Under the pieces are notes generated by a model that worked only from the letters and a program-made list of their open reading frames with translations, searched no databases and was not told the origin of the DNA. The position numbers and the translations under genes were made by a program. This document shows positions 34,096 to 35,870 of a stretch of DNA of 64,000 nt, piece after piece (positions within the stretch are counted from its first letter, which is position 1; every line of letters begins with the position of its first letter). Where the stretch lies: contig JADGAT010000012.1 of the NCBI GenBank assembly GCA_015231885.1, forward strand, positions 5,890 to 69,889, given 5' to 3'. Origin of the DNA: SAR324 cluster bacterium (GTDB lineage: Bacteria; SAR324; NAC60-12).

Positions 34096-34893
34096 TTATA
34101 ATTCAAGGGTGTCCTGGACATTTTCCCAGTCAAAACCCTGGGAAAGCAGGTTATCTTTCATCTGGATCAAAAGGGATTGGAGGCGTTTTGAAATATAATT
34201 CCTGTTTCTTCCAAGAACTATAGAGATCTGTTTGATCGAATGGCCACTAAAAAATTTCATTTTTAACATCAACTGATCGTCCTCTTCCAATTCCTTAATT
34301 AATCCTTCAAGCGTGGATTTGATTTTTTCGGCAGCCGCTTTTTTAATAGCTGCCGTAATTACCGATTCCGGAGTTGTTTCTTCTGCAAAATCTTGAACTT
34401 CATCGTGTGATGTAATATGCAGCTTCGGTGTTCGCTTCAAATGAGCGATCATTTTTTCCCATTTTTCTCGACTTAGCTGTAAATTGTGATTGATTGTTAA
34501 AATATGGTAGGCTTCCTCGGCAGTATACCTTTCTTTATGCACCAATTCTTCAAACTTAACAGCTACCTCTCCCAGTTTCTCCGCATTTTTAGAAGGGCGC
34601 CAGCGCCCGTTTATGCTGCGGAACTTGTCAATAAAAAGACGACTGACGACGGTGTATAAATAAGTTTGAAACGAAGACCGGCCATCATAGGCGCGAAGGA
34701 TAGCATAATTTTTGTCGACTAACCTAAAATGAATATGAGAAATAAATTCCTCAGCTTCCTGATGAAAAACCCTGTGACGTGCACAAGTGCTCATGATCAC
34801 TTTTTGCAGGTCTTCAAAATATTTTTCAAAAAGGTCTGACGGTTGATTCAACGGCTGATTGATTTTTCGTACCTGATTTTTGGGAATGCTCAT
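34096..34893 (-). CDS. ECF-type sigma-70 family factor with a long sigma2-sigma4 linker
   Basis: Region 2 FQTYLYTVVSRLFIDKFR. Region 4 HTH DQLMLKMKFFSGHSIKQISIVLGRNRNYISKRLQSL. 265 aa. Transcribed divergently from the anti-sigma gene. Confidence 0.75.
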   Translation of the reverse strand: MSIPKNQVRKINQPLNQPSDLFEKYFEDLQKVIMSTCARHRVFHQEAEEFISHIHFRLVDKNYAILRAYDGRSSFQTYLYTVVSRLFIDKFRSINGRWRPSKNAEKLGEVAVKFEELVHKERYTAEEAYHILTINHNLQLSREKWEKMIAHLKRTPKLHITSHDEVQDFAEETTPESVITAAIKKAAAEKIKSTLEGLIKELEEDDQLMLKMKFFSGHSIKQISIVLGRNRNYISKRLQSLLIQMKDNLLSQGFDWENVQDTLEL

Positions 34894-35114
34894 GTAATCA
34901 AATTGATCGAATTCTCACCAATTGAGGGTCGTTTTCTCAAAAAATGAATTTTGTCGTGTTTTAAAACCTGCATCTAATTAAATTAACAAATAAAAAGTTT
35001 CAATTTCTATTGTTTGAAGGTTTAGGCAAAAACAAAACATGTCCGTATAATTAAATAGGGGAAGAAAGTCACATGAATTCTTAAAAATTTGAAAAAAAGT
35101 ATGGAGGAAAGCTT

Positions 35115-35870
35115 ATGAGCGCTATTTGTCCTTCTATATCAAAGATTGCTGCTTTTGCTGAAGGGAAGGGAGAAGGAGAAGAGCACAGGAGTCTGGTTTA
35201 TCATGTCAACCGATGCGAAAGCTGTTACCATGTTTTATCCGAAATTTTGTATGCACAAAAACAATTTCCAGGATTAATTCCTGATATAGATTCAGAAATT
35301 TGGGAACAGATACCTGATACAGAAAGTTCAGCTGCTGCAGTAGATCCGTACTCCAAAGGTCGACATCTTCAAGTTTTAAAGGAGGCTTCCAGGAAAGATA
35401 TACAAGGAACCGTCATTATAAAAAACAATGTGCTTTTTGCCATTGGCACCGGTTTGATTCCAATACCTCTGCTGGATATACTGGGAACCTCTGCGATTCA
35501 ACTGAAAATGCTCAACCAGCTCTCATCACTTTATCAGATTCCGTTTTCCAAACATCTGGGAAAATCTTTGATTGGTATATTGCTTGGAGGATTAGGGGTC
35601 AGCGGTTTGTCTCGCACAGGATGGAGCTTTGCTAAACTGTTTCCCGGACTGGGGATGGCAGGAGGAATAGTGATGATGCCATTGGCAACAGGAGCATCGA
35701 CTTACGCAGTTGGCAAAATTTTTCATCAGCATTTTGCATTGGGCGGTACCTTCCTGGATTTCAACCCGAAAACAGTGAAGAATCATTTTTCAGATTTATA
35801 TTCAGAAGGTCATACTATTGTTTCGAAAATTAACTCTGAAAACTCTAAGAGTCATTTTCAAATTGCTTAG
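35115..35870 (+). CDS. zf-HC2 anti-sigma-factor N-terminal domain fused to a DUF697/EcsC-like glycine-rich domain (paralog 4)
   Basis: N-terminal HVNRCESCYHVL (H-x3-C-x2-C, putative zinc-finger anti-sigma motif). GGAAAG SD. C-terminal NVLFAIGTGLIPIPLLDILGTSAIQLKMLNQLSSLYQ...GGTFLDFNPKTVKNHF. Confidence 0.7.
   Translation: MSAICPSISKIAAFAEGKGEGEEHRSLVYHVNRCESCYHVLSEILYAQKQFPGLIPDIDSEIWEQIPDTESSAAAVDPYSKGRHLQVLKEASRKDIQGTVIIKNNVLFAIGTGLIPIPLLDILGTSAIQLKMLNQLSSLYQIPFSKHLGKSLIGILLGGLGVSGLSRTGWSFAKLFPGLGMAGGIVMMPLATGASTYAVGKIFHQHFALGGTFLDFNPKTVKNHFSDLYSEGHTIVSKINSENSKSHFQIA

Follow-up and report, generated by a model that had tools for sequence, protein, structure and literature searches.

We analysed a pair of regulatory genes that sits amid the biosynthetic genes of a large hybrid polyketide synthase/non-ribosomal peptide synthetase (PKS/NRPS) cluster, on a metagenome-assembled genome contig of a SAR324 cluster bacterium, a member of an uncultured marine lineage. 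The 64,000-nucleotide stretch of this contig that was examined is referred to as the window. One gene encodes a sigma factor and the other a predicted anti-sigma factor, in which a zinc-type N-terminal domain is joined to a DUF697 domain; together, they probably form the cluster's own transcription switch, for which we propose a mechanism below. The initial annotation described two genes diverging from a 221-bp AT-rich spacer, and the coordinates, strands and base composition (28% G+C in the spacer, compared with 43.7% in the whole window) were all reproduced (Table 1), with a sigma factor of 265 amino acids. In public annotation, the anti-sigma product is merely a 'DUF697 domain-containing protein'. 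The principle of a cluster-situated sigma/anti-sigma switch is already known; what is new here is the DUF697 output or sensor domain on an anti-sigma factor, the inverted gene order, with the anti-sigma gene leading a biosynthetic operon, and a sigma clade with a middle domain.

The sigma factor and its predicted zinc-type partner

The product of the minus-strand gene passed the thresholds of Pfam Sigma70_ECF (PF07638; 25.3 bits, cut-off 21.1) and NCBIfam TIGR02937 (56 bits, cut-off 42.9). Its AlphaFold2 (AF2) model, with a predicted local distance difference test score (pLDDT) of 78, comprises a sigma2 domain, an extra helical domain of four helices at approximately residues 102-153, a disordered linker (residues 156-174) and a sigma4 domain. 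The motif GRWRP, which follows region 2 at residues 96-100, is invariant in the alignment of the clade, whose members are 250-310 amino acids long. Foldseek matches of the model were sigma factors exclusively, of both group 3 and extracytoplasmic function (ECF) types, with sigma-D and sigma-28 among the best, while a search of the Protein Data Bank (PDB) with the sigma-family profile returned sigma4-centred matches only and detected no close solved relative. The protein resembles the group 3 factor FliA/sigma-28 in its length, in the helical domain and linker between sigma2 and sigma4, and in its spacing, as sigma4 occupies profile positions 177-246 compared with FliA residues 178-247. It differs from FliA in that the FliA_WhiG model gave only a weak match (residues 46-249; 39 bits, cut-off 190), in that Pfam Sigma70_r3 did not match, and in having a partner of the zinc anti-sigma type, which belongs to the ECF world, rather than FlgM. 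Because of the extra middle helices, the FliA-like spacing and the Foldseek matches of both types, we classify the factor as ECF-like with a sigma3-like insert. The label 'ECF', used in the initial annotation, therefore agrees with the profile matches and falls short where the protein's length, insert and domain spacing are concerned.

The opposite gene had been described as a zf-HC2 anti-sigma factor on account of the motif HVNRCESCYH. This motif is present near the N-terminus as H30-VNR-C34-ES-C37 (H-x3-C-x2-C) and, together with C5, provides candidate CHCC zinc ligands. Helices are predicted at residues 8-15, 22-33 and 35-50, and would form a small bundle resembling solved anti-sigma domains. 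A point against the assignment is that Pfam zf-HC2 (PF13490) found no match in the N-terminal 95 residues even at E ≤ 10, and the label was therefore tested by comparison with relatives. Using an alignment of four sigma sequences, we retrieved 80 loci with homologues of the sigma factor from species-representative genomes, mostly of Acidobacteriota (Thermoanaerobaculia and others), with Gemmatimonadota in addition. The next gene downstream opens, in 68 of these loci, with the pattern [C/H]P..E.LAAF.[DE]G...H...C..C, and a hidden Markov model (HMM) placed an anti-sigma-domain partner immediately downstream, on the same strand, in 74. None of the 80 loci is divergent, which bears out the earlier statement that co-transcription is the common arrangement. 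Most of the 68 partners carry a transmembrane (TM) helix after the zinc domain, followed by 250-1100 further residues; partner lengths are approximately 300 amino acids (TPR) or 1050 amino acids (TPR-CHAT, DdvA-like), the long form consisting of zf-HC2, TPR and CHAT. Several of these homologous partners pass Pfam zf-HC2 (23.4-28.8 bits, cut-off 22.2).

An HMM built from 52 partner domains, from which the window protein and its relative P0002 had been left out, scored the window's reading frame at 43.9 bits (E = 7e-13) among the 1131 reading-frame segments of the window, with no second match; no other sigma or anti-sigma domain was found in the window. H30, C34 and C37 are the sole invariant columns in the alignment of 54 anti-sigma domains, while C5 falls in a column whose consensus cysteine aligns with H6 of ChrR and has an N-terminal place like that of C6 in DdvA. 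The family profile also matched the solved structures of DdvA (8rlz), RslA (3hug_B) and ChrR (2q1z_B) at E = 1e-4, and RsiW at E = 5e-3. Although the Pfam model does not recognize the domain, the clade HMM and the matches to solved anti-sigma factors thus uphold its assignment to this type.

The nearest relatives of the two proteins were recovered together. The closest homologue of the sigma factor (P0061, 38% identity) is encoded at locus L001 and is followed, on the same strand, by a gene for a protein with CPSLEDIAAFMDG..HLNRCNDCY and a TM helix, whose anti-sigma domain is 37% identical to that in the window and thus one of the closest. Across the family, identities among sigma factors and among anti-sigma domains covary (r = 0.73). 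We conclude that the two window genes encode a cognate sigma/anti-sigma pair, with both zinc binding and complex formation predicted from sequence.

The sigma clade has undergone expansion in Thermoanaerobaculia, other Acidobacteriota and Gemmatimonadota, where a genome has several copies (L006-L085). At two loci (L004 and L005), the sigma homologue has no zinc-finger partner, and a gene combining Trans_reg_C with a Ser/Thr protein kinase lies nearby, divergent in L004 and, in L005, on the opposite strand approximately 0.8 kb downstream.

The DUF697 half of the anti-sigma factor

The C-terminus of the anti-sigma factor had been described as DUF697-like and as the fourth copy of a family in this stretch. 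Both statements hold, as residues 92-226 match Pfam DUF697 (PF05128) at 43.1 bits (cut-off 27.7) and three further genes encode stand-alone DUF697 proteins (Table 1); the anti-sigma copy is 56% identical to the paralogue at 437-958. DUF697 is a widespread domain that includes Escherichia coli YcjF. In the anti-sigma factor, this half is hydrophobic, with two glycine-rich segments and Kyte-Doolittle peaks of 1.96 (residues 104-128), 1.44 (147-166) and 1.38 (172-194). Its structural model contains five long helices arranged as helical hairpins, with a pLDDT above 90 over most of the domain, and no convincing relative was found among solved structures. Among 59 DUF697 homologues, D121, T196, Y197 and G210 are invariant and 25 columns are at least 90% conserved. 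DUF697 takes the place held in the relatives by one TM helix with TPR or TPR-CHAT, so the earlier proposal that it replaces a TM helix and sensor fits its position; being itself hydrophobic, however, DUF697 should not be seen as a replacement for membrane anchoring.

Four anti-sigma domains of the CPS..HLNRC..CY subtype, combined into a profile, matched none of 5.8 billion proteins, so that evidence on how widely the fusion occurs comes only from the best 150 of 2621 DUF697 representatives. Among these 150, four further DUF697 proteins have an N-terminal H...C..C domain. P0002, from a Tara Oceans contig, is 61% identical to the window protein. P0077 (locus L087) has the same anti-sigma-domain subtype, and its gene lies 17 bp before another FAAL-PKS gene, in the same gene order as in the window. 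In P0126 and P0202, a classic zf-HC2-type zinc finger precedes DUF697, and each gene lies directly behind that of a standard 180-amino-acid ECF sigma factor; P0126 passes the Pfam zf-HC2 cut-off of 22.2 at 24.5 bits, while the P0202 reading frame remains below it at 17.3 bits. At the P0202 loci (L089-L091), genes for a ParA/CbiA-like ATPase and a second DUF697 protein follow the zinc-finger/DUF697 gene. This pair recurs in the window at 14154-14891 and 14912-15736, and its DUF697 protein is 34% identical to that encoded at L089:7736-8332.

DUF697 was also found C-terminal to EcsC, with both Pfam domains over threshold in P0155, and behind receiver-like and cyclase-like domains, both of which are sub-threshold (P0155, P0170 and P0196 make up this set of EcsC, cyclase-like and receiver-like architectures). 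The EcsC fusion links the EcsC-like gene that follows the sigma gene to the DUF697 system; when the EcsC-like protein and DUF697 were compared as profiles, the probability was 10.5% and the E-value 0.003. Few papers of the collection searched mention DUF697, and in the titles and abstracts retrieved neither sigma factors, anti-sigma factors nor DUF697 function is the subject; likewise, DUF697 does not appear in the main text of the ECF reclassification paper.

What DUF697 contributes can be read in two ways. It may do no more than anchor the protein in the membrane, in which case the signal would enter by another route, for example oxidation at the zinc-thiolate centre, for which RsrA is the precedent, or regulated proteolysis of the protein. 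A CHCC centre of this kind belongs to the zinc anti-sigma type, some members of which are redox switches. In addition, the relatives share the build of DdvA, and that protein has been proposed to undergo regulated intramembrane proteolysis (PMC11506125). We nonetheless regard this explanation as doubtful, if a serious one, since conservation across those 25 columns goes beyond the needs of an anchor, the same domain occurs behind receiver-like and cyclase-like domains and EcsC, and this single cluster retains four copies of DUF697 along with an EcsC-like gene and a ParA-like partner. The second reading, which we advance as speculative and rather improbable, is that DUF697 acts as a membrane-embedded sensing or assembly module, a complex with its paralogues, the EcsC-like protein and the ParA-type ATPase gating the release of sigma. 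The initial annotation took the domain to be the signal-receiving module; we infer such a role from domain architecture and gene neighbourhoods. If the second reading is true, what the DUF697 complex reports in this cluster would be how heavily the lipid-tailed product loads the membrane, coupling biosynthesis to its own output, and zinc-finger/DUF697 proteins would be a new anti-sigma class with partners in at least two unrelated sigma groups.

In many stand-alone DUF697 proteins, the N-terminus is a basic, disordered tail in which a (K/R)RRRRLYEP-like motif recurs (examples are the products of 14912-15736 and L089:7736-8332, as well as P0085, P0090, P0121, P0135, P0198, P0200, P0209, P0211, P0220 and P0223). 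The DUF697 copies encoded after a ParA-like ATPase gene share this motif, and the tail resembles the basic peptides by which partner proteins address ParA/MinD ATPases.

A promoter-like element before two biosynthetic operons

The regions upstream of the anti-sigma gene and of the PKS-NRPS gene at 15955 had been named as places to look for ECF-type promoters, and an identical two-part element that resembles a motif of the sigma family was found before both. The element, which was detected by comparing the upstream regions of the anti-sigma gene and the P0077 gene (shared TGTCCG..TAA), spans 27 bp and reads AGGCAAAA-N8-TGTCCGTATAA. Exactly two copies occur in the window without mismatch, compared with a chance expectation of 0.03 hits even with 3 mismatches allowed, and TGTCCGTATAA alone also occurs exactly twice. 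One copy lies 66 nt before the PKS-NRPS gene and the other 75 nt before the start codon of the anti-sigma gene. Two-part motifs common to at least 3 of 15 upstream regions in the window were limited to two low-complexity pairs (three regions each), neither of which occurs upstream of the sigma, anti-sigma or PKS-NRPS gene.

In its -10 part, the element is similar to GTCCGTCTAA, a sequence found at fixed positions of the sigma-family loci more than 15 times as often as expected. In 79 loci, the coding strand had 16 occurrences of G[TGC]CCGT[CA]T in the gap between sigma and anti-sigma genes (0.90 expected), and the opposite strand had 15 in the stretch 10-140 nt before the sigma gene (0.98 expected). 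Each of the two places has a GAGAA/GGGAA/CGGAA block 11-12 nt in front of the 8-mer. Locus L001, home of the closest sigma homologue, carries GGACAAAA-N8-TGTCCGTCTCA and AGTTAAAA-N8-TGTCCGTCTAA at these two places, identical to the window pattern at 15 and 16 of the 19 specified bases. A matrix built from the family sites ranked the two window sites first and second in 128 kb (scores 17.7 and 15.6). On the basis of these data, co-regulation, through the shared element, of the PKS-NRPS operon and of that led by the anti-sigma gene is well supported, and recognition of the element by the cluster sigma factor is likely, as judged from sequence. The suggestion that the pair is a pathway-specific regulator therefore probably holds.

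Several results, beside the missing Pfam zf-HC2 match, weigh against this switch. Properties of the element and of the pair itself lend themselves to two further explanations. It is unlikely, in our view, that the pair is genuine but the shared element is a housekeeping sigma-70-type promoter, the cluster sigma controlling something else, such as its own operon with the EcsC-like and hydrolase genes (possibly for self-protection) or genes outside the window. The copy at 35024-35050 also reads TAGGCA-17-TATAAT (10/12) and that at 15873-15899 GAGGCA-17-TATAAG; in addition, neither matrix score lies above the maxima of shuffled sequences (mean 17.5), and the -35 half scores approximately 0 in the family matrix, so the link to the sigma family rests on the -10 half and on L001. 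Set against this, the copies agree outside the sigma-70 hexamers, with AAAA after the first and TGTCCG before the second, the TGTCCGT core is a family-enriched signature at fixed positions that recurs in L001 with the same 8-nt spacing, and the motif precedes the anti-sigma gene in the family loci as it does in the window. That the anti-sigma protein is not the partner of the adjacent sigma factor at all, serving one elsewhere or carrying a zinc domain unrelated to sigma factors, is very improbable: a divergent order unlike that of all 80 relatives would fit such an arrangement, as would a mirror-tree signal that is weak when the window row is taken by itself (r = 0.26, not significant by Spearman) and the homologous P0077 gene, which lacks a sigma gene over the 1 kb of upstream sequence available, but this subtype of anti-sigma domain is the one that goes with this sigma clade, locus L001 holds the nearest relatives of the two proteins alike, and the two genes are neighbours across a short spacer in a window with no rival for either role.

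For the cluster-specific switch, we propose the following mechanism. By homology, the N-terminal three-helix domain, with its Cys-His-Cys-Cys zinc site, would hold the sigma factor, while DUF697, judging from its hydrophobicity, would put the complex at the membrane; comparison with the relatives shows it to occupy the position of their TM helix and periplasmic TPR or TPR-CHAT sensor. Once freed, the sigma factor would direct RNA polymerase to the element before the 15955 and 35115 operons; the element and its positions are observed, and its recognition is suggested by the related motif in the sigma-family loci. Because the anti-sigma gene opens one of the target operons, induction would raise the inhibitor too, which amounts to negative feedback. 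More speculatively, release would most likely be triggered through DUF697, either by an altered association with the free paralogues, the EcsC-like protein and the ParA-like ATPase, or by membrane perturbation caused by the lipid-tailed product.

Additional features of the motif were noted. In L006-L085, GAGAA-N12-GTCCGTCTAA lies only approximately 15-35 nt before the anti-sigma start codon, suggesting leaderless or very short-leader transcripts. A variant, TGTCCGACT, occurs before the P0077 gene and again on the opposite strand (L087 positions 929 and 235), as well as 90 nt after the P0002 gene (L086 position 864). The contig end 5' of the P0077 gene (L087 1-130) consists of a tandem GCGGTGC-type repeat, and the 1 kb contains no open reading frame. 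The promoter regions 15900-15954 and 35051-35114 stay similar past the element (for example, AGTC.C...ATTC), and the duplicated unit may thus include part of the 5' leader. AGACGG-N16-TCTC, which emerged on the strand of the sigma gene, is the reverse complement of the GTCCGTCT motif.

Known systems and genomic surroundings

In domain structure, the closest known system is DdvS/DdvA of Myxococcus xanthus, an ECF sigma factor with a transmembrane zinc anti-sigma factor (PMC11506125; PDB 8rlz, 8rot). Both anti-sigma factors have a short N-terminal three-helix CHCC domain whose ligands are almost equally spaced, with C6/H28/C32/C35 in DdvA and C5/H30/C34/C37 as candidates in the window protein, and the helices predicted in the latter match the three of DdvA. 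The full DdvA architecture (zinc finger, TM helix, TPR and CHAT) is found in most partners of this sigma clade. In contrast, the window protein has DUF697 instead of the single TM helix and periplasmic TPR-CHAT region, the window genes are divergent whereas ddvS and ddvA are co-transcribed, and it is a biosynthetic cluster, not a CBASS/CRISPR island, that is predicted to be controlled.

In biological role, MibX/MibW is closest. MibX/MibW (microbisporicin) and PspX/PspW (planosporicin) are cluster-situated ECF sigma/anti-sigma pairs whose anti-sigma factor is proposed to respond to the product or to the resulting envelope stress (PMC4973701). As in the window, these pairs lie inside a natural-product cluster with common promoters before biosynthetic operons, the sigma dependence of which is a prediction here. 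They differ in coming from actinobacterial lantibiotic clusters and in having co-transcribed genes and a conventional membrane anti-sigma factor, while the SAR324 system, known from sequence alone, combines a hybrid PKS/NRPS cluster, divergent genes, DUF697 and an anti-sigma gene heading a biosynthetic operon. For DUF697 itself, we know of no sigma-binding domain described in YcjF-type proteins. The gene ycjF of E. coli almost always adjoins the P-loop gene ycjX, often beside psp membrane-stress operons (PMC3041696). The window likewise has a DUF697 gene beside that of a P-loop NTPase, in this case the ParA-like ATPase.

The analysis yields a concrete predicted circuit for a SAR324 hybrid PKS/NRPS cluster, with one sigma factor, one anti-sigma factor and two candidate promoters. 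For activation of the cluster in a heterologous host, co-expression of the sigma factor or deletion of the anti-sigma gene would be a direct route. With the fusion, a first point of entry is gained into the function of DUF697 and into its ties with EcsC and P-loop ATPases, and the sigma clade, with its extra middle domain and DdvA-like TPR-CHAT partners in Acidobacteriota and Gemmatimonadota, comes with a testable candidate promoter consensus.

Table 1. Features of the window relevant to the predicted switch (coordinates are window positions).
Feature	Position	Strand	Basis or remark
Sigma-70-family factor	34096..34893	-	Pfam Sigma70_ECF, TIGR02937, alignment, AF2 model, Foldseek
Predicted anti-sigma factor, 251 amino acids, zinc-type N-terminal domain and DUF697	35115..35870	+	
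Anti-sigma domain, residues 1-50, predicted three-helix bundle	35115..35264	+	
DUF697 domain, residues 92-226 of the anti-sigma factor	35388..35792	+	Pfam, hydropathy, model, alignment
Divergent intergenic region, 221 bp	34894..35114	.	
Promoter-like element, copy before the anti-sigma gene	35024..35050	+	
Promoter-like element, copy before the hybrid PKS-NRPS gene	15873..15899	+	
FAAL-like AMP-binding/KR/ACP, first biosynthetic gene after the anti-sigma gene	35889..39737	+	
Hybrid PKS-NRPS: KS-AT, 3 condensation, 2 adenylation and carrier domains	15955..26601	+	Behind element copy 1
EcsC-like protein	33435..34058	-	Pfam EcsC, 32.7 bits
Alpha/beta hydrolase with N-terminal TM segment	32324..33472	-	
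ParA/MinD-like ATPase, paired with the following DUF697 gene	14154..14891	+	
Stand-alone DUF697 paralogue, basic disordered N-terminal tail	14912..15736	+	
Stand-alone DUF697 paralogue, closest relative of the anti-sigma C-terminus	437..958	-	
Stand-alone DUF697 paralogue	1282..1773	+	

The anti-sigma gene had been placed 18 bp upstream of the FAAL-PKS operon. This gap applies only if the FAAL gene starts at TTG 35889; a start at ATG 35919, which has the better ribosome-binding site (AAGGAAG), is more likely and leaves 48 bp. No terminator-like site was found in the gap, and the FAAL gene is probably co-transcribed with the anti-sigma gene. On the other side, the EcsC-like gene starts 37 bp downstream of the sigma gene and probably belongs to its operon. 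The hydrolase gene overlaps the EcsC-like gene by 38 bp and is thus placed in the same transcription unit. A plus-strand terminator-like hairpin, TTGACCCGCCAGTTAGGGTCAA, with a T-run lies at 34071-34092, between the sigma and EcsC-like genes, which are both on the minus strand. A search of the window against Rfam identified no RNA families.

Divergent from the ParA-like/DUF697 pair (14154-15736) is a gene for an SPFH/Band 7 (flotillin-like) protein (12916-13980, minus strand), and these three membrane-organisation-type genes lie immediately 5' of the PKS-NRPS promoter element. The adenylation domain of the NRPS encoded at 26636-32254 (plus strand) houses two insertions, a radical SAM domain at residues 436-597 (65.5 bits) and a B12-binding domain at residues 776-887, and its AMP-binding match is divided into two stretches. 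Finally, 5771-8635 (plus strand) encodes a 954-amino-acid protein with a TLC ATP/ADP-transporter-like membrane region and C-terminal HEAT repeats.

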